A stretch of 32,494 nt of DNA from Candidatus Krumholzibacteriota bacterium (lineage in GTDB: Bacteria; Krumholzibacteriota; Krumholzibacteriia; LZORAL124-64-63): positions 1-32,494 of the forward strand of contig JBDLKA010000033.1 in the NCBI GenBank assembly GCA_039714075.1. Reading direction: 5' to 3'. The notes beneath the pieces are model-generated. The model searched no databases and was not told where the DNA came from. It was given only the letters and a program-made list of their open reading frames with translations. This document shows, in pieces, positions 8,459-30,780 of this stretch. How positions within the stretch are numbered: the first letter of the stretch is position 1; each line of letters starts with the position of its first letter. The translations under genes were made by a program, and so were the position numbers.

Positions 8459-8535
8459 ACGGCAAAAATAGGTTTTGGAACGAAAAAAGTCCAATGCGCC
8501 CTGGTTGAACCGGTTATTTAAAAATCAGGCAAGTG

Positions 8536-8564
8536 TTGATTCGATGCCACCTTCGGGGTATCCT
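8536..8564 (+). promoter_or_regulatory. Putative sigma70 promoter of the Na/Pi cotransporter gene
   Basis: TTGATT-17 nt-TATCCT, about 50 bp upstream of the proposed TTG start. Confidence 0.45.
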
Positions 8565-8612
8565 GATGGGCTAAATCAGTTGAAAACCCATCACATCAAG
8601 AGGCGATACGGT

Positions 8613-10709
8613 TTGATAAAGGCCATTCATATTGTTCTTTTGCTTGTTATTTGCCTGACGACGGGATCCGCCCTGCCCGCCGCCGGCCAATCCCTGCACC
8701 ACTACCTGGACCCCGTGACCGGCCGGCTTGCCAGCGGTGACGGCCAGTTGGGCCGACCCGGCGAGGAGTTTCCCGAACCCCTGAAAGCCGAAGTCCGCGG
8801 CCCGGACGGACGGCCCGCCGGCGGGGTGACCGTCCAGTTCGATCTGATGTCCCCCGGCGCCCACTACCTGGGCCAGGCCGTGACCGACAGTCTCGGCCGG
8901 GTCTCATTTCCCGTTACGGCGACCAGCAAAGCCCGACCTCATTCGGTGGTCGCCAGCATCGAGGGCGGGCAGCCGGGTCAGGACAGGATCGTCTACAACC
9001 TCCAAGTCAGGACGGGAAGCTGGGTGCTGTTCCTGATCTTCGGTCTCGCCGGCGGGCTCAGCCTGTTCCTGTTCGGCATGAACATGATGAGCAAGTCGCT
9101 GCAGCGCAGCGCCGGCGGCCGCATGCGCGCCATCCTCAGCGCGTTGACGGTCAACCGGTTCGTGGGCGTGGCCGTCGGGGCCTTCGTCACCATGGTCATC
9201 CAGAGTTCCAGCGCCACGACCGTGATGCTCGTCAGTTTCGTGCAGGCCCAGCTGATGACTTTCGGCCAGACCCTGGGCGTGATCCTGGGCGCGGATATCG
9301 GCACCACGGTGACCGCCCAGCTCATCGCCTTCAAGCTGACCGACTACGCGCTGCTGATGATCGCCGTCGGCTTCCTGCTCCGGTACACGGCCATAAGGCC
9401 CACCTGGAAAAACACGGGCGAGGTGATCCTCGGTTTCGGACTGCTGTTCTTCGGCATGTACGTGATGACCGAAGCCATGTACCCCCTGCGCAGCTATCAG
9501 CCGTTCCTTCATCTGCTGACCGGCCTTGAAAACCCCTGGCTCGGCATCCTGGTCGGCACGGTCTTCACCGCCCTGATCCAGAGCAGCAGCGCCTTCACCG
9601 GCATCGTCATCGTCCTGGCCCAACAGGGTTTCCTGACCCTCGACGCGGGCATTCCCTTGATTTTCGGGGCCAATATCGGGACCTGCATCACCGCCGCCCT
9701 GGCGGCCATCGGCACCACCCGTGAAGCCGCCCGCGTCGCCCTGGCCCACACCCTGTTCAAGGTGCTCGGAGTGCTGATCATGGTCTGGTGGATCCCGTCC
9801 CTGGCCGACCTGGTCCGCGACATCTCCCCCGGACCGGACACCGTCGACGCCAGCCAGGCGGTCATGGCCCGGGTCGTTCCGCGCCAGGTCGCCAACGCCC
9901 ACACCGTGTTCAACGTGGGGCTGGCCCTGCTCTTCCTGCCTTTCACGGGATTGATGGCGCGATTGGCGGTTTTCCTTCTGCCGGACCGGCCGGAACCCGC
10001 CCGCGAATGGTTCTACAAGGCCCGCCACCTGGATGCCGACATGATGGGTGCCCCCTCGCTGGCCCTGAACCTGGCCAAGGTCGAGATCCTTCGTCTGGGC
10101 GAAAAGGTCAAGTCGATGGCCATCGACAGCCTGGAACCGTTCCTCGACCACAACCTCGACGCCCTGGACCACCTGCACCGCGAGGAAAACAAGGTGGACG
10201 CCCTGGACGAGCAGATCACCGATTACCTGGTGGACATCGGCAAGCAGGAGCTGAGCGAAGAGCAGACCCGCGAAGTCTACATGATGCTGCACGTCACCAA
10301 GCAGTTCGAGCACATCGCCGACATCATTGACAAGCAGATCCGCCCCCTGGCCCTGAAGATGGTGGAGAACAACGCGGAGTTCAGCGAGACCGGGCAGTCC
10401 GAGGTGCAGTCCTATCATCTGAAAATGTGCAAGCAGATCAGCCGCGCCCTGGAAGCCTTCCGGGACGGCAGCCTGGAACTGGCCCAAAGGATGAGTGACA
10501 AGCAGAGAAACTACGTGGCCCTGGAAGAGGACTACCGGCAGGCCCATTTCCAGCGCATCCACCAGGCCGTGACCGAATCGGTGGCCACCAGCGAGATCCA
10601 TCTCGAACTGATGGACAGCTACCGGCGCATCAGCAGCTACAGCACCAACGTGGGCCGGGCCATCATGAGGAAGGACCGGTTCGGGAATCCCGATTACGAA
10701 GAGGGCTGA
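8613..10709 (+). CDS. Na+/phosphate cotransporter (NptA/SLC34-like) with signal peptide, N-terminal Ig-like (Big_1-type) domain and C-terminal PhoU-like domains
   Basis: Two QSSS repeats (IQSSSATT, IQSSSAFT), GADIGTT and GANIGTC, and a PhoU-like tail (EENKVDALDEQI, FEHIAD). Start reassigned to TTG 8613 behind AAGAGG, giving a signal peptide. Confidence 0.88.
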   Translation: MIKAIHIVLLLVICLTTGSALPAAGQSLHHYLDPVTGRLASGDGQLGRPGEEFPEPLKAEVRGPDGRPAGGVTVQFDLMSPGAHYLGQAVTDSLGRVSFPVTATSKARPHSVVASIEGGQPGQDRIVYNLQVRTGSWVLFLIFGLAGGLSLFLFGMNMMSKSLQRSAGGRMRAILSALTVNRFVGVAVGAFVTMVIQSSSATTVMLVSFVQAQLMTFGQTLGVILGADIGTTVTAQLIAFKLTDYALLMIAVGFLLRYTAIRPTWKNTGEVILGFGLLFFGMYVMTEAMYPLRSYQPFLHLLTGLENPWLGILVGTVFTALIQSSSAFTGIVIVLAQQGFLTLDAGIPLIFGANIGTCITAALAAIGTTREAARVALAHTLFKVLGVLIMVWWIPSLADLVRDISPGPDTVDASQAVMARVVPRQVANAHTVFNVGLALLFLPFTGLMARLAVFLLPDRPEPAREWFYKARHLDADMMGAPSLALNLAKVEILRLGEKVKSMAIDSLEPFLDHNLDALDHLHREENKVDALDEQITDYLVDIGKQELSEEQTREVYMMLHVTKQFEHIADIIDKQIRPLALKMVENNAEFSETGQSEVQSYHLKMCKQISRALEAFRDGSLELAQRMSDKQRNYVALEEDYRQAHFQRIHQAVTESVATSEIHLELMDSYRRISSYSTNVGRAIMRKDRFGNPDYEEG

Positions 10710-11282: not shown

Positions 11283-11884
11283 CGGAACCCGTCACGGAAA
11301 ACAACATCGTCCAGGGGAAGCTGGCCGGAACGGGCACGGGCGGGTTCCAGGGCCTTGCCGACGGTGACGGCCATGATGATGTCGTGATCGGCCGGCAGGT
11401 TGATGATCTCGGCCACGGCTTCGAAATCGAACCCGACCATGGGGCAGGTGTCATATCCCATGGCCTTGGCGGCCAGCATCAGGGTCTGCCCCGCCAGCCC
11501 ACCCGAGCGGAAGTTTTCGTCCCTGCGCAAATCTTCGCTGGAACCGTAGACACCCCTGATCATGGGCACGACTGCTTCCCGCGCCTCGGCGGGTGCATCC
11601 GCCCAGTAGCGTTCCGGCTCCTGATCGTAGGCGTTGCGGTCTCCACAGATCACCACGGTCATGCTGCTGTCGGTGAACTGGGCCTGGTCGTACCCCTTTT
11701 CCCGCACCCGGCGTTTCACCTCCTGATCGGTGATCAGCACGAAGCGCCAATTCTGGATGTTGAAGGAAGTGGGCGTCAGGAGGACCGTTTCCATCAGACG
11801 GTTGATCTCGTCCGGGGTCATCTCATGCCTGGGATCGTATTTCTTTACGGACCGACGGGCCGCGATCGTTTCAAAGGTGTCCAT
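11279..11884 (-). CDS. Nitroreductase family protein
   Basis: RRSVKKY, TPTSFNIQNWRF and LMLAAKAMGYDTCPMVGFD. GGAGGAG RBS. Confidence 0.92.
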   Translation of the reverse strand: MDTFETIAARRSVKKYDPRHEMTPDEINRLMETVLLTPTSFNIQNWRFVLITDQEVKRRVREKGYDQAQFTDSSMTVVICGDRNAYDQEPERYWADAPAEAREAVVPMIRGVYGSSEDLRRDENFRSGGLAGQTLMLAAKAMGYDTCPMVGFDFEAVAEIINLPADHDIIMAVTVGKALEPARARSGQLPLDDVVFRDGFR

Positions 11885-12366
11885 GTCTCCTCCAGGGTCG
11901 AACGGTCGGGTGGTGAAGGAAAAAATTGCTCGAGGAATATAGGCTCGATCCGGGAGACCGCAACGCCGCGCGCGGAAGGATTCAGGCCTCCTTGGAAGAT
12001 CAGGAACCCTACCAGGTACATGAAAAGGTCCCAGGGATCCCCCACGGCCGCCTTCTGGATTCGAGGCAGGAAGGCTTCAAAGAAGACCCCGAAAAACACC
12101 ACCGCGGTCAGTCCGTGGGAAATTGGCAGGGTGCGCCTGCCGGGCCGTCCCGCCAACCGTCGCACCGTCAGGGCCAGACTGAGCACCAGCGGCAGGCAGA
12201 GAAGATCGTCGCCGTATCCCCGCACCCAGCCGGGAGCCGTTCCAAGCCCCTCACCGAGGCGAATCAGCACGAAGAGAATGATCAACAACGGAAGCAGGCC
12301 TCCGCCCCAGGGAATCATTCCGGCCGCACGGTTCAGGGGGAAGTGTCGGGGTGATTCCAATCCCAT
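11845..12366 (-). CDS. Small integral membrane hypothetical protein
   Basis: About four hydrophobic segments with YGDDLLCLP, FFEAFLP and GDPWDLFMY motifs. Start ATG 12366 overlaps the upstream small-ORF stop (TAATG). The 3' end overlaps the nitroreductase start by 40 bp. Confidence 0.6.
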   Translation of the reverse strand: MGLESPRHFPLNRAAGMIPWGGGLLPLLIILFVLIRLGEGLGTAPGWVRGYGDDLLCLPLVLSLALTVRRLAGRPGRRTLPISHGLTAVVFFGVFFEAFLPRIQKAAVGDPWDLFMYLVGFLIFQGGLNPSARGVAVSRIEPIFLEQFFPSPPDRSTLEETWTPLKRSRPVGP

Positions 12367-12452
12367 TACAGGGAAAGTGCCGTGATCAGGATCGCGGATC
12401 CCACGAGAACCAGGAGGGTAAGACCCCATCCCTTGACATCCCAATTCCTCAT
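12366..12452 (-). CDS. 28-aa single-pass membrane micropeptide (MRNWDVKGWGLTLLVLVGSAILITALSL)
   Basis: AGAAAGGA RBS, one hydrophobic helix, and TAATG coupling to the next gene. Below the ORF-track cutoff. Confidence 0.5.
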   Translation of the reverse strand: MRNWDVKGWGLTLLVLVGSAILITALSL

Positions 12453-12494: not shown

Positions 12495-15305
12495 CTACTC
12501 AATATCCCCGGGAATCGCTCCCACCGAGCGGAAGAAAGCGCCCTCGCGCGTCGCGGCACGGGAATGGGCAGCAAAAACGAGCGCCTGCCGCCGGGCCTGA
12601 TCGATCCTGCCCGCCGCCAGATTCCACCACACCTGCTCCACCCACAGCCGGATCTGCATTTCGGGCGGAGCGGTTCCGGCTCGCAACCCCTCGACCGGAG
12701 GATAATAGGCCGCGGCCGTTCCAAAGCGGTCGGCCGCTTCGCCGTAGCGTCCGGCCAGGGCCATCAGTTGCCCGCAGGTGGCGTGCTGGTTCGGGTCACC
12801 CACCATTGCGGAAAGCTGCTCCACCCAGCCGCCGTCGCCGTGCGCCAGAGCAGTCAGGGCGGCAGCCAGAGGTTGGCCGGACCGGGGATCGATTTCCGAC
12901 AGCCGCGCCCGGATGTTGTTTTCCAGGCGGCCGGCGTTGGCACCGCTCTCCCCCCCGGGCACCAACCCGTCCAGTTTGGCCTGCACGTACTGGCGATGGA
13001 GCAGCATGAGGTCGGGCCGCCGGGCCCCCGCGCCGCGCGAGGCGAGCCACCGCCTCTCCACCCCGGCAACGATTTCCCGCTGTCTGTCCTGCAGGTTCGA
13101 CAGGGCGACCTCGAAAGCCGCCAACCGAGCCCGGTCCGCGGCCGGGTCGACAAGTTCTCCTCCATTGACCTGGAAATTCTCCAGATGCCACCAGCTGTTG
13201 TGGTCACTTTGCCGGGAAACCGGATCCCGACTCCCCGACGCAGGCGCCACTTTCATGATGCGGTAATGCTCGTTGTCGTAGACGGGGATGAATCCCTGCA
13301 GGATTTCCGGCCGGAAATGCAGCTTCACCACATTCATGTCCATTGTCAGGGGGCCTGCGATTCCCGCCTGATAGGCGAGCGAACCGGGGCCGAGCCCGGT
13401 GGCCAAATTGCGGTTGATGAAGAGGAAGTCGGCCCCGTGTTCCCGGGCGAAGTCCCACAACACCGTTTCGTCCGTGGCGTAGAGGGCTTCCAGGTATCGG
13501 CGGTACCGGTGCCTGATGGCTGCGTTCTCGAACTGGGAATTCATGACGATGGGCCGGCCGGTATACAACAGCAGTTGGGGACTGACCCCGATTTCCCCCA
13601 GGAAAGCCGCCGGTTGTCCCGGCAGACGGGAACCCGGCCCCGGAGTGTTGGCCGTCACCCAGGAGAACATGCCGGTCCAGGACCGCCACAGCCTCTGGTC
13701 CGAGGCCCCCAGGTGCACATCCTGCCCCTGCCGCACGCTGCGCGTGATGCGAATCATGTCCCCCAGGTTTCCGCCCAGGTTCAATACGGGGCTGATCAAA
13801 AGCATTCCCGCGACCACCGGCAGGGCCCGCCCTCCCCAGGCCGGCGTCAGCCGCCGCACCAACCTCTCGGCGGCCACGGCCACCGCAATGGCGGCGAAAA
13901 CCAGGAAGACCACTCCCAGCCGTTCGATCAAAAGGTAGGCGGCCAGGAAGGCCGGGACCGTCAGCAGGAACGACCGTGCCAACGCGTCGATGCCCCGGCG
14001 GATGCCGGCCCACAGGCACCAGATCATCACCGGGACGACTACCCCCGCGTGAAAACCCAGTTTGGCCCAGATCTCCGCACCGGTTGGCGAGTTGAACGGA
14101 GGCGCCCAGAACACGCGGCTGTCGAACGGCAATTGGCCGGGGTCAACGGGCAGACGGAACCCGTGCACGAGTTTCTGGACGAAGAGTCCGAAGACATGAT
14201 TGTAGTCGCCCGTATAACCCCGGTTCAGGAATACCAGGGCTCCCAGCGCCCCGATCAGTCCGGTGAGAAGGAACAGTCGGGCGACCGGTGATCCGGCCGA
14301 CCCCTTTTGCCGCGTCGCCAAAATCGCGACAATGGTCCAGGCGTACAGAACGGACATGGGCAGGCTGATGAAGAACCCACGCGCCAGAAGCGAGGGCGTC
14401 AGGGCGGCCAGCAATCCGGCCAGGGTGTAGGCCGCGGGCATGAGCAGTTCGAAGGGATACTTCCGGTCCGGCGCCGGATCTGTTGGCACGTGCGCCGCCC
14501 AGCCCACAGCCGCGCCCAGCATGACTACCAGGACCAGGAACTGGCTCAGGTGCCAACCCGCCAGGACGGGAATCAACAGCACCGCCGCCAGGACCAACAG
14601 GGGAATGCTGCGGCGGCGCCAGCTCCAGAAGTGGACGGCCAGAAAAACCGCCAGGCACAGGAGGGCAAAATCCTCCTTCAGCAGAAGGGAGCCGGTCATG
14701 CGGACAAAACCCATGGTGCAGGTCGCGTAGAAGACCACCCCCAGAACCGCCGGGATCCGGCGGCAGCCCAGGGCGCGGGCGACCGCGTACAGGGGGAAGA
14801 AAACCAGGACATGGATCAAGGGAATCAGGCGCAGCAGGAATTCCGCGAAGGGTCGGGCCTGGTCACCGGCCAGGCGGTACAAAAAACCGTAGACCGGCTC
14901 CATGAGAAGGGCGTACTCGCGCCACGAATCGACCCCGGCGGGATGCTGCTGCCAGATGTCCCGGGCCAGGATTTCGGGATCCTGGAAATCGTCCACCGCG
15001 AACATCAAGGAGGTGCGGTAATGGAAAGCCCGTTCGCTCCAGAAATAACCGATGTGGCCCAGCTGGCTGGGCGGGCGGGCCGGAGGATCGGTCCGGCCCA
15101 GTTCGGGACCCGCCGCCACGATGGGCAACAGGGACGGGTCTCCCAGAACTTCATATTGCCGGTACAGGGAAGTGGCCACCGCGTTGATCATCTGCCAGGA
15201 CAGCACCGCGAGCAGCAGAACCGCAGCCAGGGCGGCGAGCTCGCGGCGGAATCCGGTCCAACCCGCCCGGGCCCGGGAATTTTTCCTTCCGGAAGGAAGG
15301 CCCAT
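12495..15305 (-). CDS. DPY19-like GT-C fold membrane glycosyltransferase (putative C-mannosyltransferase homologue) with extra helical C-terminal extension
   Basis: About a dozen TM segments with colinear motifs resembling DPY19: FWSERAFHY, DIWQQHP, LLKEDF, WHLSQF, DYNHVF, LIERL, FSWVTANT, AFLG, TGRPIVMNSQFENAAIR and VYDNEHYRIMKV. No WWDYG motif. Start at ATG 15305 behind AGGAG (936 aa). Confidence 0.75.
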   Translation of the reverse strand: MGLPSGRKNSRARAGWTGFRRELAALAAVLLLAVLSWQMINAVATSLYRQYEVLGDPSLLPIVAAGPELGRTDPPARPPSQLGHIGYFWSERAFHYRTSLMFAVDDFQDPEILARDIWQQHPAGVDSWREYALLMEPVYGFLYRLAGDQARPFAEFLLRLIPLIHVLVFFPLYAVARALGCRRIPAVLGVVFYATCTMGFVRMTGSLLLKEDFALLCLAVFLAVHFWSWRRRSIPLLVLAAVLLIPVLAGWHLSQFLVLVVMLGAAVGWAAHVPTDPAPDRKYPFELLMPAAYTLAGLLAALTPSLLARGFFISLPMSVLYAWTIVAILATRQKGSAGSPVARLFLLTGLIGALGALVFLNRGYTGDYNHVFGLFVQKLVHGFRLPVDPGQLPFDSRVFWAPPFNSPTGAEIWAKLGFHAGVVVPVMIWCLWAGIRRGIDALARSFLLTVPAFLAAYLLIERLGVVFLVFAAIAVAVAAERLVRRLTPAWGGRALPVVAGMLLISPVLNLGGNLGDMIRITRSVRQGQDVHLGASDQRLWRSWTGMFSWVTANTPGPGSRLPGQPAAFLGEIGVSPQLLLYTGRPIVMNSQFENAAIRHRYRRYLEALYATDETVLWDFAREHGADFLFINRNLATGLGPGSLAYQAGIAGPLTMDMNVVKLHFRPEILQGFIPVYDNEHYRIMKVAPASGSRDPVSRQSDHNSWWHLENFQVNGGELVDPAADRARLAAFEVALSNLQDRQREIVAGVERRWLASRGAGARRPDLMLLHRQYVQAKLDGLVPGGESGANAGRLENNIRARLSEIDPRSGQPLAAALTALAHGDGGWVEQLSAMVGDPNQHATCGQLMALAGRYGEAADRFGTAAAYYPPVEGLRAGTAPPEMQIRLWVEQVWWNLAAGRIDQARRQALVFAAHSRAATREGAFFRSVGAIPGDIE

Positions 15306-15435
15306 GTAACTTTTCTCCTGTAGGTACGTCATTTCATCTGGTCCCCGTGAGTGGACCACTCTAACATCGGCATCGGGTCGGGAACATCCCGAATTCGATC
15401 CCGGCCGCCTCTTTCTCCGCCTGAAAGGAAAAGCC

Positions 15436-16299
15436 ATGCCGCGCCCTTCCACCGCACGCGTCGCCGGAATACTTTTCCTGGCCCTCGTTGTCGTCATGAT
15501 GCCCGGGATTTCAGCCGGCGGCGGCCTGGGAATCCCCTCCAGCCAAAGCGGTCTGGGTTTCGGGAATTTGCCAAACTTTTCCGGTGTGCGGTTCAATCTT
15601 GTGGACCGGGACGTTGAGCGGGTGAACGGTCTGAACTTCACCTTCTGGATACCCAAAGAAAACAAATCCGCCGTTTACCAGGGTGTGTCCCTCGGGCTGG
15701 TGGGACACGAGTCGGCCCTGACCCAGGGTATTGCCCTGGGGTTGATCGGTGTCGGCAGCGGCGATATCCAGGGCGTGGCCCTGGGCGGCATCGGCGTCGG
15801 AGCCGGTAACATCCAAGGTGTGACCCTGGGCGGCATCGGCGTCGGGGCCGAGGATATCCAGGGTGTGGCCATCGGCGGCATCGGTGTCGGGGGAAATGAC
15901 ATTCAGGGCGTGGCCATCGGCGGAATCGGCGTCGGCGGAAACGACATGTCCGGGATTGGAGTCGGCGGAATCGGTGTCGGCGGGGACCAATTGACGGGAA
16001 TTTTCCTGGGCGGAGTGGGCGTCGGAGGAGACGACCTGTCCGGACTGATGGCCGGCCTCGTAGGCGTCGGCGGCGACCGCATCGAAGGAGCCGCGCTGAC
16101 CCTAGGCTACCTGAAGGGCGAGTCCCTGACCGGACTGGGCGTCGCCGGGTACAGCAACGTGCGGGAAACCACCGGCCTGAGCATCGGCATCTTCAACCGA
16201 GCCCGACGTTTGAAGGGCATCCAGATCGGGCTGTTGAACCATGCCGGCAACAATCCGCGCGGCTTGCAGTGGCTGCCGGGGATCAATGCCCACTTTTGA
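15436..16299 (+). CDS. Secreted Gly-rich repeat surface protein (LA_2272-like repeat family)
   Basis: Signal peptide, 15-aa repeats xGVxxGGIGVGxxDI, GLSIGIFN/GIQIGLLN repeats, and C-terminal LPGINAHF. AAAGGAA RBS. Confidence 0.75.
   Translation: MPRPSTARVAGILFLALVVVMMPGISAGGGLGIPSSQSGLGFGNLPNFSGVRFNLVDRDVERVNGLNFTFWIPKENKSAVYQGVSLGLVGHESALTQGIALGLIGVGSGDIQGVALGGIGVGAGNIQGVTLGGIGVGAEDIQGVAIGGIGVGGNDIQGVAIGGIGVGGNDMSGIGVGGIGVGGDQLTGIFLGGVGVGGDDLSGLMAGLVGVGGDRIEGAALTLGYLKGESLTGLGVAGYSNVRETTGLSIGIFNRARRLKGIQIGLLNHAGNNPRGLQWLPGINAHF
15724..16083 (+). repeat. About 8 tandem imperfect 45-bp coding repeats (15 aa each)
   Basis: Repeated cagggygtggccmtsggcggcatcggygtcgg units. Confidence 0.85.
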
Positions 16300-16356: not shown

Positions 16357-18285
16357 TTGGCTCACGGGGTTTTCCGGAGGACTGCCTTGCCTGATTCCCG
16401 CCGATTTCGCTGGCTCAAATCCCCCTTGTTCATCCTCCTGGGCATCCTGGCCATCCTGGTGGCGGTTTTCTGGTCGCAGATGATCAACTGGATGCTGCCC
16501 GCGGACAGCCGGCCCGCCTCCATCGCCTTTACCGAGGAAATCCTCACCCAGGAAGGTTTTGAGGCGGCGGCCGCGGCTCTCGAATCAACGCCGCGCGGCG
16601 CGGCCGGAGAGTTCGGGCACATCGACCGGTTTCGTGAGGCCGGCATCCTGGCCTACAAGGGCCCGGCCACGTGTCTGGGCTGCCACGAACAGATCACCTA
16701 CCAGGATGATGAGGGCAACGAAACATCCACGGACCTCATGACCAACCTCACCTCCTCGGCCCACTACCGCTTTTTCTCCAGGGAGCACCCGAACGTCTAC
16801 GGTTTCAACGGGGAACTCGCCGACGATTTTCCGATGGGCAAGCTGAACCGGCCGTGTCCCAAGCCCGGCTCTTTCGCCATGACCGCCTGGGCGGAGCTGG
16901 TCGTCACCCAGGCAGGCGACACCCTGAGCGAGGGTTGCGGACAGTGCCACATCGGCGGCCAGTACCAGGCGCCGCTGGGCGAAATGATGCCCCTGTACCG
17001 GACCGGCGGGGATGAAAAGGACGCGATCGACTGCCTGATCTGCCACGCGACGGCCTACGACATGAACCGCAAGCAGGTCGTGACCGACGCCAATGGCCGC
17101 CGGCGGTGGGACCAGGACCGTTCTTTGCTGGCGGCCCTGTCCGTCACCTCCCCCACGGCCGAGGCCTGTCTGCGCTGCCACCAGCATAATTTCGGCGGCG
17201 ACATCTACGTCGATCCGGCCGGGCCGGAGTTCATGGACAGCCTGCGGAACCTCGGCCGCGAACGGCCCCGGGTCCAGCACCCCGGCTCCAAGCGGGGCAC
17301 CCCCTACTCGCCGAGTTGGGATGTGCATGCCGCCGCGGGAATGTCCTGCATCGAATGCCACGCCACGCGCGGCCATTTCATGGCCAAGGGCACGCACACC
17401 ACCACCGTGATGGCCAACGATCTGCCCCAGGTCGAGGTCTCCTGCCTGGACTGCCATGACCAGCCCCACGACAACCGGAGCGAGGACGGCCGGATACTGA
17501 ACGACCACCTCGACCGGGTGGCCTGCCAGACCTGCCACATCCCTTCCCTGCATCCGGACAACGTCACCCGCCGCGACTTCGGCGATACGGAATTCGAAGA
17601 GGACCCCGGCATACACATCTACCACGACCGGGTGAAGAAAAACGCGCCCGGACACGGCATCGCCTACGTGTGGTGGAACGGGGACGCGACCTTCCTCGGC
17701 AACCCCATCGGCGACAATCCCAACGGGGCCGATCTGTACAGTTTCTACGACGCCCGGTGGCGCTGGTCCGAGTTTGCCGACTTCGACTACGAGGTCTGGT
17801 ACGAGGAGGTCATGCGGCCGATCGCCAAGGCCGGCCGCCCCTCGAAGATCTATCCCATGAAAAGGTTCAACGGCCGGCAGCATATCGATCTGCAGAACAT
17901 CGGGCCGTTCGGCGGCATGTTCGTGCCCTACAACCTGCCCTCGTACTACCGTTTCGGCCACCCCGGCCAGGCCGCCCGCGTGGAGATGGACAAGAGCATG
18001 ATGGGCATGATGTACGGCTGGCTGTTCAAGTTCTACATGATGGACAAGTTCATGTCGTTCATGGCCATCGACGGCTGGAACACCCATTCGTACGTCGATG
18101 TGAGGGCCGGAAAGAAAGTCGAACCGCGCTGGCTGCCCACCGACGCCATGCTCGAGATCAGCCACGCCATCCGCCGCCAAGGCGCCCTGACCTGCAACGA
18201 TTGCCACGGCGTAGGCGGTCTGATGGATTGGCCGGCCCTGGGCTACACTCCCGAGGAAATCGACAACCTCATCATTCCCCGCTGA
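16357..18285 (+). CDS. Membrane-anchored octaheme cytochrome c, OTR (octaheme tetrathionate reductase)-like family
   Basis: Eight CxxCH motifs (CLGCH, CGQCH, CLICH, CLRCH, CIECH, CLDCH, CQTCH, CNDCH). N-terminal TM anchor. MGKLNRPC before heme 2, WDVH, HLDRVACQTCHIP and ISH...ALTCNDCH fit the OTR layout. Start uncertain (TTG 16357 or slightly downstream). Confidence 0.8.
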   Translation: MAHGVFRRTALPDSRRFRWLKSPLFILLGILAILVAVFWSQMINWMLPADSRPASIAFTEEILTQEGFEAAAAALESTPRGAAGEFGHIDRFREAGILAYKGPATCLGCHEQITYQDDEGNETSTDLMTNLTSSAHYRFFSREHPNVYGFNGELADDFPMGKLNRPCPKPGSFAMTAWAELVVTQAGDTLSEGCGQCHIGGQYQAPLGEMMPLYRTGGDEKDAIDCLICHATAYDMNRKQVVTDANGRRRWDQDRSLLAALSVTSPTAEACLRCHQHNFGGDIYVDPAGPEFMDSLRNLGRERPRVQHPGSKRGTPYSPSWDVHAAAGMSCIECHATRGHFMAKGTHTTTVMANDLPQVEVSCLDCHDQPHDNRSEDGRILNDHLDRVACQTCHIPSLHPDNVTRRDFGDTEFEEDPGIHIYHDRVKKNAPGHGIAYVWWNGDATFLGNPIGDNPNGADLYSFYDARWRWSEFADFDYEVWYEEVMRPIAKAGRPSKIYPMKRFNGRQHIDLQNIGPFGGMFVPYNLPSYYRFGHPGQAARVEMDKSMMGMMYGWLFKFYMMDKFMSFMAIDGWNTHSYVDVRAGKKVEPRWLPTDAMLEISHAIRRQGALTCNDCHGVGGLMDWPALGYTPEEIDNLIIPR

Positions 18286-18401
18286 GCCGGGATATTTCCC
18301 CCGGGCCCGGTTTTTTCGGGCGAAAATTTCATCCGTTCGTAGTAATAATGGATATCCTGAATTTCGTCCCCGACCCACCTTCACGCTTCCGGGAGAGAGC
18401 C

Positions 18402-20513
18402 ATGACGTTCCAGGTGATGCACGCGCCCCAACTCCAATCCGGGTCCCCGGAGGCCAAGAGGGACGAAATTCGCCGCTATTTTCAGACGACGTGGGAATTG
18501 TACGAGGACCTGTTCTCGCTGATGGACGGCGACCGGGCCTACTTCACGCGGGCCGATCCGCTGCGGCATCCGCTCATTTTCTACCTCGGTCATACGGCGT
18601 CCTTTTTCATCAACAAGCTGGTGCTGGCCAAGTTCATCACCGAACGGGTCAACCCCCGGTTCGAGTCGATCTTCGCCATCGGCGTGGACGAGATGAGCTG
18701 GGACGACCTGGACGAAAAGAACTACGACTGGCCGACGGTCGCCGAAGTCTGGACCTACCGGAACCAGGTGCGCGCGGTGGTCGAAAAGGTGATCGACGAC
18801 CTGCCCCTGACGCTTCCGGTCACCTGGGACGACCCTTTCTGGGTCATCCTGATGGGCGTCGAACACGAGAGGATCCACCTGGAGACCAGTTCCGTCCTGA
18901 TCCGCCAGCTACCCCTGGATCTGGTGACACCCCGGGACGCCTGGCCCGTCTGCGACACTGCGGGACCCGCCCCCGCCAATGAACTGATGGACGTCGCGGG
19001 CGGAAAGGTCGTCCTGGGGAAGCCCCGGGACCATGGCCTTTACGGGTGGGACAACGAATACGGCAGGCTGGAATCCGAGGTGGCCCCCTTCCGGGCCTCC
19101 CGCTACCTGGTGAGCAACGGCGAGTTCAGGGAATTCATCGCGGCCGAGGGATACCGCACCGAACGCTGGTGGACCGCCGAAGGGTGGGAATGGCGCAACT
19201 ACCGCCAGGCTGAATACCCCGCCTTCTGGAGGCCCGACGAAAAGGGGGATTTCCGCCTGCGATGTCTGGCCGAGGAAATCCCCATGCCCTGGGACTGGCC
19301 CGTGGAGATCAACCAGCTCGAAGCCAAGGCCTTCTGCAACTGGAAGGCCGAACAGACCGGTCGCCCCGTCCGGCTGCCGACCGAAGAGGAATGGTATCGC
19401 CTGCTGGATGTGTCCGGGATCAGGGACCAGCCCGAGTGGGACGGCGCGCCCGGGAACATCAACCTGGTAAGCCAGGCCTCCTCGTGTCCGGTGACCGAGA
19501 ACGTCACCGCCGGTTTCGGCGATGTGGTGGGCAACGTCTGGCAATGGACCGAAACCCCGATCGCGGGCTTCCCCGGTTTCCGGGTGCACCCGCTGTACGA
19601 CGACTTCTCCACGCCCACCTTCGACACCCGGCACAACCTGATCAAGGGAGGGTCCTGGATCTCGACGGGCAACGAGGCCACGCTTCACGCGCGGTACGCC
19701 TTCCGGCGCCACTTCCTGCAGCATGCCGGCTTCCGGTACATCGAATCCGAAACCGAGGCCGAAATCCGGGAAGACATCTACGAATCGGACGCCCTGGTTT
19801 CCCAGTACTGCGAATTCCACTACGGGGCGGACTATTTCGGGGTACCCAACTTCATGGTCACCGCGGCGGAAATCTGCCGGGAACTCGTGGGCGACCGCCC
19901 CATCGCCCGCGCCCTGGACCTCGGGTGCGCGACCGGCCGGGCCACCTTCGAACTGGCCCGGTTCTGCGACCAGGTCACGGGCATCGATTTCTCCGCCCGT
20001 TTCATCCGGGTGGGACACGAACTTCAGCAGAAGGGGATCACCCGCTATTCCATCAGCGAAGAAGGCGATCTGGTTTCCTACCACGAAAAGACCCTGACGG
20101 AACTGGGGCTGGAGAAGACGAAGGAAAAGGTCGAATTCTGGCAGGGGGACGCTCATAACCTGAAGGAACAGTTCGCCGGCTATGATCTGGTCCTGGCCTG
20201 CAACCTCATCGATCGGCTGTACGACCCGGCCCGCTTCCTCGACCACATCGCCGGCCGCATCAACGCCGGCGGGCTTCTGGTCCTGCTGTCGCCGTACACC
20301 TGGCTCGAGGAATTCACCCCGAAGCAGAAGTGGCTGGGCGGATTGAAAATCGACGGGGAGAACGTGACAACCCTGGACGGATTGAGGGCCCGGCTCGAAC
20401 CGGGATTCAGGATGATCGGGGAACCGCGGGACGTGGAGTTCGTGATCAGGGAAACGGCGCGGAAATTCCAGCACACGGCCAGTCAATTGACCGTGTGGGA
20501 AAAAAATGGCTGA
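18402..20513 (+). CDS. ovoA: Ovothiol biosynthesis enzyme OvoA (5-histidylcysteine sulfoxide synthase plus C-terminal SAM methyltransferase)
   Basis: DinB-like RHPLIFYLGHT and iron motif HERIHLET. FGE-sulfatase domain (GNVWQW, HPLYDDFS, KGGSW, RRHFLQHAGFRY). MTase domain (LDLGCATGR, NLIDRLY, SPYTWLEEFT, RETARKFQH). Start at ATG 18402 behind GGGAGAG. Confidence 0.9.
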   Translation: MTFQVMHAPQLQSGSPEAKRDEIRRYFQTTWELYEDLFSLMDGDRAYFTRADPLRHPLIFYLGHTASFFINKLVLAKFITERVNPRFESIFAIGVDEMSWDDLDEKNYDWPTVAEVWTYRNQVRAVVEKVIDDLPLTLPVTWDDPFWVILMGVEHERIHLETSSVLIRQLPLDLVTPRDAWPVCDTAGPAPANELMDVAGGKVVLGKPRDHGLYGWDNEYGRLESEVAPFRASRYLVSNGEFREFIAAEGYRTERWWTAEGWEWRNYRQAEYPAFWRPDEKGDFRLRCLAEEIPMPWDWPVEINQLEAKAFCNWKAEQTGRPVRLPTEEEWYRLLDVSGIRDQPEWDGAPGNINLVSQASSCPVTENVTAGFGDVVGNVWQWTETPIAGFPGFRVHPLYDDFSTPTFDTRHNLIKGGSWISTGNEATLHARYAFRRHFLQHAGFRYIESETEAEIREDIYESDALVSQYCEFHYGADYFGVPNFMVTAAEICRELVGDRPIARALDLGCATGRATFELARFCDQVTGIDFSARFIRVGHELQQKGITRYSISEEGDLVSYHEKTLTELGLEKTKEKVEFWQGDAHNLKEQFAGYDLVLACNLIDRLYDPARFLDHIAGRINAGGLLVLLSPYTWLEEFTPKQKWLGGLKIDGENVTTLDGLRARLEPGFRMIGEPRDVEFVIRETARKFQHTASQLTVWEKNG

Positions 20514-25455: not shown

Positions 25456-25929
25456 TCATACCTCCGTGGTCGCTTCACCCACCGGCCGCCCTTCCCGGCG
25501 GGCCGTTACGGCCTCCAGCAGCGTGATCCAGGGCAACAGGGCGCACTTGACGCGCACCGGGAACTTGCGCACCCCGGTCAGGACCTCCAGGTCGCCGGGA
25601 TCGAGGTCGTCGGCCAGTTCGGCCTGGTCGTCGTGCATGATCCGGCGGAAGGCCTCGGCCAGGCGGCCGGCCTCCGCCTGCGTGCGGCCGACCAGCAACT
25701 CCCCCAGGATCGAACCGCTCGCCGTGGCGATGGCGCACCCTTCGGTCTTCACCGAAACGGCGCTGATGCGGTCTCCGTCAAAAGCCAGCTGCAGGGTCAC
25801 CTCGTCGCCGCAGGAAGGGTTCTTGCCGGCGGCCCGGGCATCGGCCCGGGACAGGGGCTCGCGGCAGCGCGGGCTGCGGTGGTGGTCCAGGATCACTTCC
25901 CGGTAAAGGTCGTCCATACCCGCGTTCAT
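25456..25929 (-). CDS. sufU: SufU (NifU-family) Fe-S assembly sulfur-transfer protein
   Basis: LYREVILDH, NPSCGD, GCAIATAS and RVKCALLPW: all Cys/Asp Zn ligands present, plus the SufU-type insertion. Confidence 0.92.
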   Translation of the reverse strand: MNAGMDDLYREVILDHHRSPRCREPLSRADARAAGKNPSCGDEVTLQLAFDGDRISAVSVKTEGCAIATASGSILGELLVGRTQAEAGRLAEAFRRIMHDDQAELADDLDPGDLEVLTGVRKFPVRVKCALLPWITLLEAVTARREGRPVGEATTEV

Positions 25930-27224
25930 GTGGCGAACACACTCCTGGCGTAGGTGACGGCATCGACCAGGGCGTCAATGTCGTCATGGGAATTGTACAT
26001 GGCGAAGGAGGCCCGGGTGGTGGCCGCGACACCCAATCGTTTGTGCAGGGGCTGGGCGCAATGATGCCCCGCCCGCACCGCGACGCCGCGGGCGTCGAGC
26101 AACTGGGCCATGTCATGGGCATGGACGGAGGGATCGTGGAAACTGATCAGTCCCCCGCGCGCGGAGGGATCAGCGGGCCCGTACAGGGTCAGGCCGCCCA
26201 GGCGGGACAACCGCTCCCAGGCGTAACCCGTCAGGGAAATTTCGTGGGTCCGCAATCTCTCCAGGGAAACCTCGTCGATCAGGTCGAGGGCCGGCGTGAA
26301 GGCCGCGGCGGCGCCCACGTTGGGCGTGCCCGCTTCCAGCCGGTGCGGCACCTCGGCCCAGGTGGCGTCAGCCATGGTCACGGTCTCGATCATCTCGCCC
26401 CCCGACTCCAGGGGATCAAGGTCCTCGAGGATTTCCCGGCGGCCCGCCAGAAAACCCAACCCCATGGGGCCGTATGTCTTATGGGCGGAGAAGGCCAAAA
26501 GATCAGCACCCAGGTCAGACAGCGATACGGGTAGATGTCCCACCGACTGGGCGGCATCCACGACCACCAGGGCGCCCCGTCGACGGGCCGCGGCGGCGAT
26601 TTCCGCCACCGGATTGATGGTGCCCAGGACATTGGAAACATGGGTCAGGGCCACCACCTTTGTCCGATTGTTCAGCAGTTCGCCCAGGCGGTCCAGATCC
26701 AGGAGCCCGCCCTCGGTCACGGGCAGGTACCGCAGGACAAGCCCTTCGCTCCGCGCAACCCGGATCCAGGGCACGAGATTGGCGTGATGCTCCATCCCCG
26801 TGACCAGGATTTCGTCTCCGGGCCGGAAGCGGTGGGCCAATCCGCGGGCCACGATATTAAGGGACGAAGTCGTCCCCCGCGTGATCACGACCTGACCCGA
26901 GCGATCGCTGCCCAGGAATCGCGCCACCCGGGCCCGGCATCCCTCGTAGAGATCCGTGGCCTCGGCCGCGAGGGTGTGCATGCCCCGGTGAACGTTGGCG
27001 TTGTGCTCCCGGTAATACCTGGCCTCGGCCGCGATCACCCCTTCTGGTTTCTGGGTGGTGGCCCCGTTGTCCAGATAGACGAGGGGCCGGTCGCCCATTT
27101 GGCGGCGCAGAATGGGGAACCTTTCGGGGCACAGGGGACCGCAGCGACTGCAGTCGCCCTCCTGGCCATCGCAGGGCTGGGTTCCGGCCGGCGCCGACAG
27201 GGCGAGGTCACGGGATTTGCTCAT
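25926..27224 (-). CDS. sufS: SufS group II cysteine desulfurase with a Cys-rich N-terminal extension
   Basis: YLDNGATTQKP, ANVHRG, PLP Lys in SAHKTYGP, and catalytic RAGHHCAQP. ATGA overlaps with sufD and sufU. Confidence 0.93.
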   Translation of the reverse strand: MSKSRDLALSAPAGTQPCDGQEGDCSRCGPLCPERFPILRRQMGDRPLVYLDNGATTQKPEGVIAAEARYYREHNANVHRGMHTLAAEATDLYEGCRARVARFLGSDRSGQVVITRGTTSSLNIVARGLAHRFRPGDEILVTGMEHHANLVPWIRVARSEGLVLRYLPVTEGGLLDLDRLGELLNNRTKVVALTHVSNVLGTINPVAEIAAAARRRGALVVVDAAQSVGHLPVSLSDLGADLLAFSAHKTYGPMGLGFLAGRREILEDLDPLESGGEMIETVTMADATWAEVPHRLEAGTPNVGAAAAFTPALDLIDEVSLERLRTHEISLTGYAWERLSRLGGLTLYGPADPSARGGLISFHDPSVHAHDMAQLLDARGVAVRAGHHCAQPLHKRLGVAATTRASFAMYNSHDDIDALVDAVTYARSVFAT

Positions 27225-28522
27225 GACTCCTCCCCCAACCGGACCAGGCGTCCGGTGACAAGTTCTTCGACACCGGGACGCAGGGCCTCGGGAATGCTCT
27301 GCAGGGTCTTCTCCAAAAATCCCCGCACCACCAGACGCAACGCCTGGCCGGGGTCCAGGCCCCGGCTTTCCAGGTAGAAGAGCTGGTCCTGGTCCACCGG
27401 CGCGACCGTGGCGCCGTGGCTGCAGCTGACCTCCTCGTTGAGGATCTCCAGTTCCGGAATGGCGTCGGCCCGGCTCTTTTCCGACAGCAGCAGGTTGCGG
27501 TTCACCTGATAGGCTTCGCTGACCCGCGCCTCCTCCTCGATCCGGATCAACCCGGTGTAACTGCTCCGGGAATGATCCGCCCCCACCGACTTGAAATCGA
27601 TGTCGCTCCAGGTCCGGCCCGCCAGATGGCGGTGCCGGGTGTGGTGGTCGAAGCGCTGATTTTCTCCACCCAGCGCCACGCCGACCATGCGGCTGCGGGC
27701 TCCCTCACCCTGCAGATCGGCATTCAGCTCCATCTTGACCCGCTCGCCGCCGAAGGTGGCGAACACCGACAAAAGTTCCGCGTCCCGTCCGACCCGGGAT
27801 TGGACCGTCAGGTGTCCGTTCGTTCCCGCTTGCCAGGTCTGAAGAACAACATGCCGCAACCGGGCCCCCGTACCGGCCACGAGATCACTGCGACCGACAA
27901 CCGCATTACCGGTGCCGCCGTCGACGTGCTGCTCGACCAGGGTGGCGGCCGACCCCGCGCCGGCGCGGAAGAGGATACGGGGCAGTACGGTCGGACCCCG
28001 GGCATGGATCCGGACCACGACCGGGCCGGGCAGAACCGCGCCCTCGGCGACGTCGATCTGCAGGCCGGCGTTCCAGGCCGCCGCGTTCAGATGGCGGAAT
28101 AATGCCGAGGGAACATCCTGGTCCTCCAGGGTTCCGGCGGCCATGGCGCCGTCCAGGGGCCCCACCGTCAATGAACCGTCGGCGACCCCGGCTCCCCCTT
28201 GGACAACCGGATGCCGGCCGGGCCACAAGTCCACCGTAGCTGCGGCCTCCACAACAGGGGGCAACTCGGCCGCGGCTACGTCCGAGCCTGTCAGGGCGGC
28301 CGCGGATAGATCAGCGGGCACCAGGTATTCCGGGTTGGTGAAACGCCACAGGTGCCGGGCCCGATCGGGGAAACCGGCCTGGGTATACCTGGCAAGGGCG
28401 GAACGACGCGCCGACCGGGCGGTCTCCACTTGCCCCAAACGCTCACAGAGCGCCTTCAGATCCCCGTCCGCAAGGGCGGACCCGACAGCGGCCAAGGTCG
28501 TTTCAGTGGTCAAATCAGCCAA
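27221..28522 (-). CDS. sufD: SufD Fe-S cluster assembly protein
   Basis: [29 protein letters not shown] and LFYLESRG. Lies between sufB and sufS. Confidence 0.9.
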
Positions 28523-29933
28523 CGGACCCCTCCATTTCCAGTTCGATCAGGCGATTGAGCTCGACCGCGTATTCCATGGGCAGTTCCTTGACGAAAGGTT
28601 CGATGAAACCGTTGACGATCATCATGCGCGCCTTGTCCTCGTCCAGACCGCGGCTCTGCAGATAGAACAACTGCTCCTCGGCCACCTTGGAAACGCGCGC
28701 TTCGTGTTCCACGCGCACATCCTGTTCGGCCACGTCCATGGTGGGATAGGTGTCGCTGCGGGCCCGCTCGCCGATGAGCAGGGCGTCGCATTCCACATTC
28801 GTCCGGCACCCGGTCGCGCCGCGGGCCACCTTGACCAGGCCGCGGTAACTGGAGCGCCCGTCATCCTTGCTGATGGATTTCGAAACGATGCGGCTGGTGG
28901 TGTTGGGAGCCGCGTGGGTCATCTTGGCGCCGGCGTCCTGGTGCTGGCCGTGGCCGGCAAAGGCGATCGACAACACCTCGCCGTGGGCCCGTTCGCCCTT
29001 CAGGACGATGGCCGGATACTTCATGGTCAGCTTGGAACCGATGTTGCCGTCCACCCACTCGACCACGGCGTCCTCATGGGCGTGGGCCCGCTTGGTGACA
29101 AGGTTGAAGACGTTGGTGGACCAGTTCTGGATGGTGGTGTAGCGGATGTGCGCTCCCTTGAGGGCCACCAGTTCCACCACCGCCGAGTGCAGGGAGTCGG
29201 AAGAGTAGGTCGGCGCGGTGCAACCTTCGATGTAGTGCACGCTGCTGCCCTCGTCGGCGATGATCAGCGTGCGTTCGAACTGACCCATGTTCTCGGCGTT
29301 GATGCGGAAGTAGGCCTGCAGAGGAATGTCCACCTTGGTGTTCGGCGGCACGTAGATGAACGACCCGCCGGACCAGACCGCCGTGTTCAGGGCCGAAAAC
29401 TTGTTGTCCCGGGTGGGGATGATCCTGCCGAAGAACTTCTTCACGATGTCCGGGTGCTCGCGCAGGCCCGAATCCATGTCCATGAACAGGACGCCCAGTT
29501 TTTCCAGGTCTTCCCTGATGGAATGGTAGACCACTTCCGATTCGTACTGGGCCGTCACCCCGGCCAGGAACTTGCGTTCGGCCTCGGGTACACCCAGACG
29601 GTCGAAAGTGTTCTTGATGTCCTCGGGCACGTCGTCCCAGTCGCGCGCCTGTTCGCCCTTGGGTTTGATGTAGTAGTGGATGTTGTCGAAATCGATTTCC
29701 CCGAGCAGGTCGCCGTTGCCCCAACCGGGCATGGGTTTGGCGAGAAAGATGTCCAGGGCCTCGTGGCGCATCGCGCGCATCCAGTCGGGCTCGTTCTTTT
29801 TCCGGGAGATCATCTCCACCACCTCGTGGTCGATCCCCTTGGGCGCCTTCAGCAGGTAATCCTCGGGATCATGGAACCCGTATTTCTCCGCGTAGTCCTG
29901 ATTGATTCCCGCCACTTTCTGCCTGGAGCTCAT
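28515..29933 (-). CDS. sufB: SufB Fe-S cluster scaffold
   Basis: [41 protein letters not shown] and ELPMEYAVE. Confidence 0.96.
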
Positions 29934-30715
29934 GAAGCACCCCCGGAACCGGCCGCACTGGATTCCAGCAGCCAGTCGTAGCCCCGGGTTTCCAGTTCAT
30001 GCGGAAGTTCGGAGCCGCCGGTGCGGACGATCCGGCCCTCCATGAAGACGTGGACGATGTCGGGCTTCACGTAGTCCAGAATCCGTTGGTAGTGGGTCAC
30101 CATCAACATGCCGTTTTCCGGACCGGTGGCCTGGTTGATGCCGGCTGAAACGACTTTGAGTGCGTCGATGTCCAGGCCGCTGTCGGTTTCGTCCAGCAGG
30201 GAGAAAACGGGCTGGAGCATGAGCATCTGGAGAATCTCCAGGCGCTTCTTTTCCCCACCGGAGAACCCGTCGTTCAGGTAGCGGGAAACGAAGCTGCGGT
30301 CGATGCCCAGTTCCTTGAAGGCGGCATCCATTTCCCGGCGGAATTCCCGCACCGGGATGTCGGCGCCCCGCCGGGCGGACAGCGCCGCGCGAAGGAAATT
30401 CGCCACCGAAACGCCCGGGACGGCCACGGGATACTGGAAGCTCATGAACAGCCCCTTGCGCGCCCTCTCATGGGGTTCCAGTTCGTCCACGCGCTCGCCG
30501 GCGAGCCAGATCTCCCCGGATACTTCGTAGCCGGGGTGGCCCATCAGGGCGGCGGCCAGGGTTGATTTCCCCGATCCGTTCGGCCCCATCAGGGCATGTT
30601 TCTCTCCCTTGCGGACCGTTAGATCCACGCCCTTGACCAGTTCCCTGGTCCCGTCATTGTCCTGCACCGAAACCTTCAGGTCGCGACAGGCGAAAACGAT
30701 ATCCTGGCTGTCCAT
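29930..30715 (-). CDS. sufC: SufC Fe-S assembly ABC ATPase
   Basis: [34 protein letters not shown] and THYQRIL. Start ATG 30715 or GTG 30730. Confidence 0.95.
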
Positions 30716-30780
30716 TGCGGAGTTCTGCACTTCCCTACCCCTTGCGAAGACTGACCCGGCGCCCAAAATCCAACCGGTTC

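Follow-up and report, generated by a model that had tools for sequence, protein, structure and literature searches.

The window analysed here, 32,494 nucleotides of contig JBDLKA010000033.1 (assembly GCA_039714075.1) from a Candidatus Krumholzibacteriota bacterium, carries on its minus strand a gene for a protein of 936 amino acids (aa) that is a DPY19-family glycosyltransferase of the GT-C type by sequence, by fold and by most of its functional residues. The CAZy number of DPY19 is one which we take to be GT98. The closest known tryptophan (Trp) C-mannosyltransferases are C. elegans DPY-19 (CeDPY19) and human DPY19L1-L4 (PF10034; PDB 7zlg, 7zlh, 7zli, 7zlj). As a whole, we consider it moderately probable that the gene specifies a bacterial GT-C(A) enzyme of the DPY19 branch which would transfer a hexose from a polyprenyl-monophosphate carrier to secreted or periplasmic proteins, with Trp as the leading acceptor hypothesis. 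An earlier reading made without database searches (the sequence-only reading) proposed that proteins may be C-glycosylated in the periplasm, or that a related GT-C reaction uses a polyprenol-phosphate sugar, and either would be compatible with the data.

The family assignment is carried by sequence profiles. Dpy19 (PF10034) was the sole Pfam family to match the protein at E ≤ 10 (E 4.2e-9; 35.6 bits vs. a gathering score of 27.2), with no match to STT3, PMT or PMT_2 at this threshold, and NCBIfam offered no family for it. A single-sequence phmmer search against the PDB gave a chance match to DPP-IV (E 1.5), and family profiles were required. Three were used, namely A1 with 25 full-length relatives, A2 with 65 diverse relatives, and A3 with 27 more distant relatives which are mostly poor in tetratricopeptide repeats (TPR; 4 of the 27 still match a TPR family). 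With A1, CeDPY19 (7zlg_A) came first among the PDB chains at E 0.0028 over the outer domain, where RPvvLNSQFEN of the profile pairs with RPIVNHPHYEH. The A2 list was headed by TPR proteins because the relatives carry TPR tails, and contained DPY19 at E 1.1e-30 and STT3 at about 1e-21. With A3, CeDPY19 was the best chain (E 2.7e-34, 121.7 bits; profile positions 102-601, chain residues 163-687), followed by STT3A (E 2.2e-20, 75.8 bits) and then other STT3 chains; PMT, ArnT and Emb/Aft chains were absent from the list at E ≤ 1. Moreover, Pfam Dpy19 matches 26 of the 27 A3 members. Of 25 distant representatives sampled, every one matches it at E ≤ 0.001, 23 score above the cut-off, and one matches PMT_2. 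The comparison of PF10034 with the STT3 and PMT profiles, which the sequence-only reading had proposed, left Dpy19 alone above the cut-off and CeDPY19 as the best solved relative by profile.

The predicted structure points in the same direction. An AlphaFold2 (AF2) model built with the 25-sequence alignment (mean predicted local distance difference test, pLDDT, 86.6; predicted template modelling score, pTM, 0.83) was compared with the PDB by Foldseek, and ranks 1-3 were taken by the CeDPY19 entries 7zlh, 7zli and 7zlg (E 7.9e-16 to 2.6e-15; TM-score by target 0.73-0.75), aligned over 740-751 columns. Eukaryotic STT3 followed (E from 2.6e-12; TM-score 0.60-0.69), then AglB (E from 6e-10; 0.43-0.51), PglB (E from 4.5e-6; 0.48-0.49), AftA (E 1.1e-5; 0.42), ArnT (E 3.1e-3; 0.41), ALG9 (E 3.2e-3; 0.37), ALG12 (E 7.6e-3; 0.46) and, at rank 33, Pmt4 (E 9e-3; 0.46). 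A closer relationship to STT3/AglB, ArnT or PMT than to DPY19, for which the sequence-only reading had left room, was looked for and did not appear, CeDPY19 being best by both profile and fold. In addition to this double match, the protein shares with CeDPY19 the Pfam family, about 13 transmembrane (TM) helices and an outer alpha/beta dome.

STT3, AglB and PglB have the same GT-C(A) architecture and come second in both the profile and the fold comparison, and an oligosaccharyltransferase of this type, performing N-glycosylation, was weighed against the DPY19 assignment. Apart from the rank of STT3 in both comparisons, four of the 27 A3 relatives match Pfam STT3 as well. The pentapeptide WWDYG at the start of the outer domain is defining for STT3/AglB/PglB, and the 936-aa protein contains neither WWD nor WWDYG, the absence of the latter having been noticed by the sequence-only reading; the WWDYG of STT3A faces unconserved positions of the A3 profile. 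Furthermore, DPY19 lies 46 bits above STT3A with this profile and higher in fold comparison, the protein itself gives no Pfam STT3 match, and the DPY19-type dome motif RPxV-x-H/N-S/P-x-F/Y-E is kept. We regard an oligosaccharyltransferase of the STT3 type as highly improbable.

Translation of the reading frame and hydropathy agree with the polytopic membrane protein described at the outset. About 13 TM helices were counted from hydropathy and the AF2 model, a count that is approximate; by hydropathy the first outer loop comprises 113 aa, and the last TM helix is followed by a soluble part of 424 aa (aa 513-936) within which no TM segment is predicted. Because of the ~13 TM segments, this part, including its C-terminal extension, is predicted to be non-cytoplasmic and to lie in the periplasm (Table 1). 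The nine motifs quoted in the sequence-only reading were all recovered in colinear order, i.e., FWSERAFHY at aa 88, RDIWQQHP at 115, LLKEDF at 208, WHLSQF at 251, DYNHVFGLFVQK at 367, LIERL at 459, FSWVTANT at 547 with AFLG at 567, TGRPIVMNSQFENAAIRHR at 582 and VYDNEHYRIMKV at 675. HMMER reproduces all nine pairings, in this order, against the solved C. elegans chain 7zlg_A, which was used in place of the human DPY19L1 strings of the sequence-only reading. Seven of the nine fall within the 7zlg_A stretch of E 2.7e-34; the stretches that hold the remaining two, both in the first outer loop, are non-significant alone (0.3 and -1.2 bits).

Residue equivalences were counted along the HMMER alignment of A3 with 7zlg_A, and conservation among the 65 diverse relatives. 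According to the CeDPY19 literature (PMC10154233), Glu71 is the catalytic acid/base, Arg211 contacts the phosphate and Trp(+3), and Arg471 the phosphate. The same source describes a Trp(0) cage made of Tyr395, Phe401 and Tyr578 with a hydrogen bond from the Pro576 backbone carbonyl to Trp(0), and a pocket for Trp(+3) of the WxxW sequon with contacts from Arg211 and Lys473 and with Leu474 as its floor. Both arginines have counterparts inside the significant stretch, R202 for Arg211 (58/65) and R462 for Arg471 (65/65). E91 aligns, in a weak stretch, with Glu71 and is Glu in 61 and Asp in 3 of the 65; in DPY19L4, the catalytic carboxylate of the first outer loop is Asp. Profile A1 places the next part of this loop colinearly, again in weak stretches, with D116 on D98, E136 on E118 and Y143-R144 on Y125-R126 (D116 is conserved in 65/65, E136 in 57/65 and R144 in 59/65). 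In the membrane core, KEDF 210-213 pairs with RESF 219-222 (E211 in 64/65), and W251 is invariant (65/65).

On the acceptor side, F404 aligns with Phe401 (Phe in 55, Tyr in 3 and Trp in 1 of the 65, i.e., aromatic in 59) and F592 with Tyr578 (Phe in 55, Tyr in 5, Trp in 3; aromatic in 63). F399 stands opposite Tyr395 and is mostly Leu or Met in the wider family (Leu 31, Phe 21, Met 8), the alignment register near 399/400 being uncertain by one residue; the adjacent W400 is Trp in 64/65. S590 takes the place of Pro576 (Ser in 35, Pro in 27), E593 that of Glu579 (64/65), and V465 that of Leu474 (Val or Ile in 39/65). With both A1 and A3, RPIVMNSQFEN of the dome aligns with RPIVNHPHYEH of CeDPY19 (R584 in 62/65). 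Taken together, the aligned counterparts of Glu71, Arg211, Arg471, Phe401, Tyr578 and Glu579 are kept in 55-65 of the 65 relatives, with F399 as the exception among the cage positions.

The helical C-terminal extension of ~230 aa announced by the sequence-only reading was found as well, with a length of about 230-245 aa. It is conserved within the close family, and aa 691-936 folded alone as ten helices (pLDDT 92.7). TPR repeats are generally protein-binding modules, and canonical ones follow the dome in 21 of the 25 sampled distant relatives. For the extension itself, the weak Foldseek matches include many TPR proteins, e.g., Sti1, PEX5, PilF and YbgF, the A1 profile weakly matches the TPR of PEX5 (E 0.03), and the ESM Atlas yielded weak TPR-like leads (scores 0.84-0.87). 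An hhalign comparison of the close family with 20 Dpy19+TPR proteins covered aa 80-931 and so continued into the TPR region of the latter (probability 100%, E 1e-104), a figure that does not include a per-region confidence for the tail. Against the tail as a proven TPR domain speak the lack of any Pfam TPR match in the 936-aa protein at E ≤ 10 and the lack of a PDB match of the tail alone at E ≤ 0.001 in Foldseek. We read the extension as a putative degenerate TPR-like module in the position that the TPRs occupy in the relatives. Just after the dome, a WW pair occurs (Table 1), which is not at the position of the STT3 WWDYG; at position 706, all 25 close relatives have Trp, and all 65 wider relatives have Tyr, Phe or Trp.

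As to donor and acceptor, the chemistry and what the tail does, we infer the following scheme. The protein would be an active, probably metal-independent transferase that works at the periplasmic face, with proteins as its most likely targets. A polyprenyl (undecaprenyl-type) monophosphate hexose could be drawn from the membrane, its phosphate being held by R202 and R462, with E91 as acid/base. The acceptor, a stretch of a secreted or periplasmic protein in extended conformation, would occupy the groove that the outer loops form with the dome and receive one sugar, and the helical tail might aid substrate recruitment. Trp C-glycosylation is the leading specific hypothesis, since F399, F404 and F592 sit at the positions of the acceptor-Trp cage of CeDPY19; given the different +3 pocket, this need not involve a WxxW sequon. 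Relative to DPY19, which resides in the endoplasmic reticulum, the bacterial protein is predicted to be periplasmic, its donor would be a bacterial polyprenol instead of dolichol, and it has no known substrate of the TSR (thrombospondin type 1 repeat) type.

Several points weigh against this proposal. The identity to CeDPY19 is only 13-14%. STT3 is significant too, with E about 1e-20 in the profile search and 2.6e-12 in the fold comparison, and therefore homology leaves the acceptor atom unfixed. The pairing of E91 with Glu71 lies in the stretch scoring 0.3 bits alone and is derived from the alignment. Lys473 of the Trp(+3) pocket is lost, its counterpart G464 being variable (Ser in 16, Gly in 13, Ala in 6, Glu in 5 and others in the remainder of the 65), and the cage tyrosines of CeDPY19 are replaced by Phe. 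The genomic surroundings add to this: no polyprenol-phosphate-sugar synthase of family GT2 was seen among the 38 open reading frames (ORFs) scanned in the window, and no glycosylation gene, including GT2, among 45 of the 97 ORFs scanned around 12 more distant loci. The window showed neither a TSR domain nor a WxxW-rich protein (WxxW/C count over 25 ORFs), and a single WxxW/C occurs in only two other of its predicted proteins.

Some of these points would suit a DPY19-fold enzyme forming an O- or N-glycosidic bond to protein (on Ser/Thr/Tyr or Asn/Arg), as PMT, TMTC and TMEM260 enzymes do. The loss of Lys473 and the Phe-for-Tyr exchanges in the cage are compatible with such an acceptor, and GT-C enzymes are described as having a common donor handling and a carboxylate base irrespective of the acceptor (PMC10154233). 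The architecture is reminiscent, too: the O-mannosyltransferases TMTC1-4 and TMEM260 join a GT-C core to TPR-type helical repeats that lie outside the cytoplasm, paralleled by the core plus TPR tail in 21 of the 25 representatives, and for TMTC-type enzymes full-length prokaryotic homologues have been reported (PMC7801869). The GT-C core of the present protein, however, is of a different family, without a PMT, PMT_2 or TMTC-type Pfam match at E ≤ 10, Pmt4 ranks far down in the fold comparison, and the conserved aromatic trio stands at the positions of the CeDPY19 indole cage. O- or N-glycosidic bond formation on proteins appears unlikely to us.

Lipids or glycans are the acceptors of many bacterial GT-C enzymes, and a non-protein envelope acceptor (lipid A, lipoglycan, polysaccharide or a peptidoglycan-linked polymer), as for ArnT or the Emb/Aft arabinosyltransferases, is a further alternative to protein modification. 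AftA and ArnT are detectable by fold, and the neighbouring genes include no evident substrate protein. Both are far weaker matches, however, than DPY19 and STT3, which modify proteins, and the TPR tails of the relatives point to protein partners. No polysaccharide or lipopolysaccharide gene cluster is visible in the window or at the 12 other loci examined. We judge an envelope acceptor to be decidedly unlikely.

With respect to its distribution, the gene is far from unique and belongs to a large bacterial family tagged PF10034. A word-indexed homologue search returned 63 proteins at E ≤ 0.001, of which 61 already bear this tag; a source name is given for few of them, and it reads hypothetical protein or is otherwise uninformative. 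In an exhaustive search of cluster representatives (50% identity), the number of clusters was at least 604 for E ≤ 0.001, with 401 for E ≤ 1e-10 and 105 for E ≤ 1e-30, the best 150 of the 604 being listed. A word-indexed search from A3 led back to this Krumholzibacteria-type family, without any eukaryotic DPY19. Among the GTDB species genomes, 26 loci were confirmed, the best of them 78% identical, which makes a Krumholzibacteriia origin of the window probable. The 20 best loci, mostly near full length, come from metagenome-assembled genomes (MAGs) of Candidatus Krumholzibacteriia/Krumholzibacteria, some labelled 'uncultured Fibrobacteraceae' or 'bacterium'; Krumholzibacteria MAGs also hold a partial match (L021) and a shorter paralogue (L026), and four relatives at 28-29% identity belong to Ignavibacteria, Kapaibacterium, Spirochaetia and Hyphomicrobiales MAGs. 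MAGs of Krumholzibacteriota carry the full-length form, within a large wider Dpy19-like bacterial family. Paralogue pairs occur in single Krumholzibacteria MAGs, L017 with L020 in MFD04716.bin.2.70 and L019 with L026 in MFD05684.bin.2.24, in different contexts.

Since public protein tables already tag these proteins as PF10034, homology alone is no discovery, and the interest lies in the chemistry and the substrates. The full-text literature searched, with subscription journals and supplements outside its scope, contained no paper on bacterial DPY19 homologues. In a 2026 review (PMC12990085), 'prokaryot' and 'archaea' are absent and 'bacteria' occurs in three passages, none of them on homologues. 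According to another article (PMC9338275), a co-evolution of DPY19 with TSR domains seems to have accompanied the emergence of metazoans. What can be added here is a large bacterial family of the DPY19 fold in which the aligned counterparts of the catalytic Glu and of the two phosphate-binding arginines are conserved and the cage positions mostly stay aromatic. Two questions become testable in this way, i.e., whether bacteria C-glycosylate proteins and where DPY19 originated. The farthest-reaching version, in which a widespread, ancient bacterial DPY19-type family C-glycosylates secreted or periplasmic proteins at Trp or a different aromatic residue and eukaryotic DPY19 descends from it, seems to us possible and yet rather unlikely; if true, protein C-glycosylation would not be a eukaryotic, metazoan-era invention. 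A bacterial enzyme might moreover offer an easier model for structure and mechanism.

Regarding the gene itself, the minus-strand frame is open from a TTG at 15665 (1056 aa) down to the stop codon. The ATG at 15305 is a reasonable start, because the close homologues (929-944 aa) cover 100% of the 936-aa query, and at least 90% of the 25 aligned relatives share M1. Upstream of this ATG, 120 codons are open (15306-15665, minus strand), and an alternative ATG lies nine codons upstream. A scan for promoters and terminators gave no sites in excess of shuffled sequence.

Table 1. Coordinates, as window positions, of the DPY19-like gene, the parts of its product and neighbouring genes (EL, external loop).
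Feature	Residues (aa)	Position (strand)	Remarks
DPY19-like gene	1-936	12495-15305 (-)	starts MGLPSG; stop codon 12495-12497
Cytoplasmic basic N-terminus and TM1	1-11; 12-49	15159-15305 (-)	4 K/R in aa 1-16; model helix 12-49
EL1, first periplasmic loop	50-152	14850-15158 (-)	FWSE with E91 (codon 15033-15035), D116, E136, R144
Membrane core TM2-TM13	153-511	13773-14849 (-)	inside significant HMMER stretch to 7zlg_A; R202 (14700-14702), K210-E211-D-F213, W251-H252, R462 (13920-13922)
EL5 motif	399-404	14094-14111 (-)	FWAPPF
Periplasmic alpha/beta dome	512-690	13236-13772 (-)	mixed helices and strands in model
Dome motif	584-594	13524-13556 (-)	RPIVMNSQFEN
All-helical C-terminal extension	691-936	12498-13235 (-)	predicted periplasmic, weakly TPR-like, family-specific
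WW pair	705-706	13188-13193 (-)	
Na/Pi cotransporter with PhoU domains		8475-10709 (+)	
Small hydrophobic ORF		11845-12444 (-)	directly downstream, same strand
Gly-rich repeat protein		15436-16299 (+)	divergent
Multihaem c-type cytochrome		16357-18285 (+)	two genes from the DPY19-like gene
OvoA gene		17670-20513 (+)	true start probably after 18285
SufC-SufB-SufD-SufS operon		25926-30766 (-)	

The gene context gives no functional lead, as the window neighbours are housekeeping or respiratory genes. The order of cytochrome c, Gly-rich repeat protein, DPY19-like gene, small membrane ORF and nitroreductase is kept in 10-14 of the 26 loci and may reflect plain synteny, because these loci are all close relatives. 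The small hydrophobic ORF is assigned to neither a Pfam nor an NCBIfam family, and 12 related loci retain it; its translation probably begins at an internal Met, and co-transcription with the glycosyltransferase gene is possible. On the other side, the divergent Gly-rich protein adjoins the gene in 10 loci. It appears to be secreted, with a signal-peptide-like N-terminus and many Gly-rich repeats of the GIGVGG type, and has no Pfam family, showing a weak similarity to the VC2662 family (30 bits vs. a cut-off of 140).

The multihaem cytochrome is kept in 11 related loci and has family matches below the cut-off to the octahaem tetrathionate-reductase family and to an MtrC/MtrF-like domain. At a paralogue locus in another MAG, a multihaem cytochrome ORF (L026:5311-6471, minus strand) lies ~1.5 kb upstream. 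This proximity may be a coincidence or a hint to a substrate.

Further features of the window stand apart from the DPY19-like gene. A complete gene for OvoA of ovothiol biosynthesis is present, with NCBIfam matches to ovoA_Nterm (698 bits vs. a cut-off of 400; aa 252-691 of the ORF) and ovoA_Cterm (343.7 vs. 170; aa 704-945) and with Pfam matches to DinB_2, FGE-sulfatase and methyltransferase. The Suf genes form an operon for iron-sulfur cluster assembly, and the Na/Pi cotransporter, fused to its PhoU domains, has an N-terminal Big_1-like stretch that scores below the cut-off.

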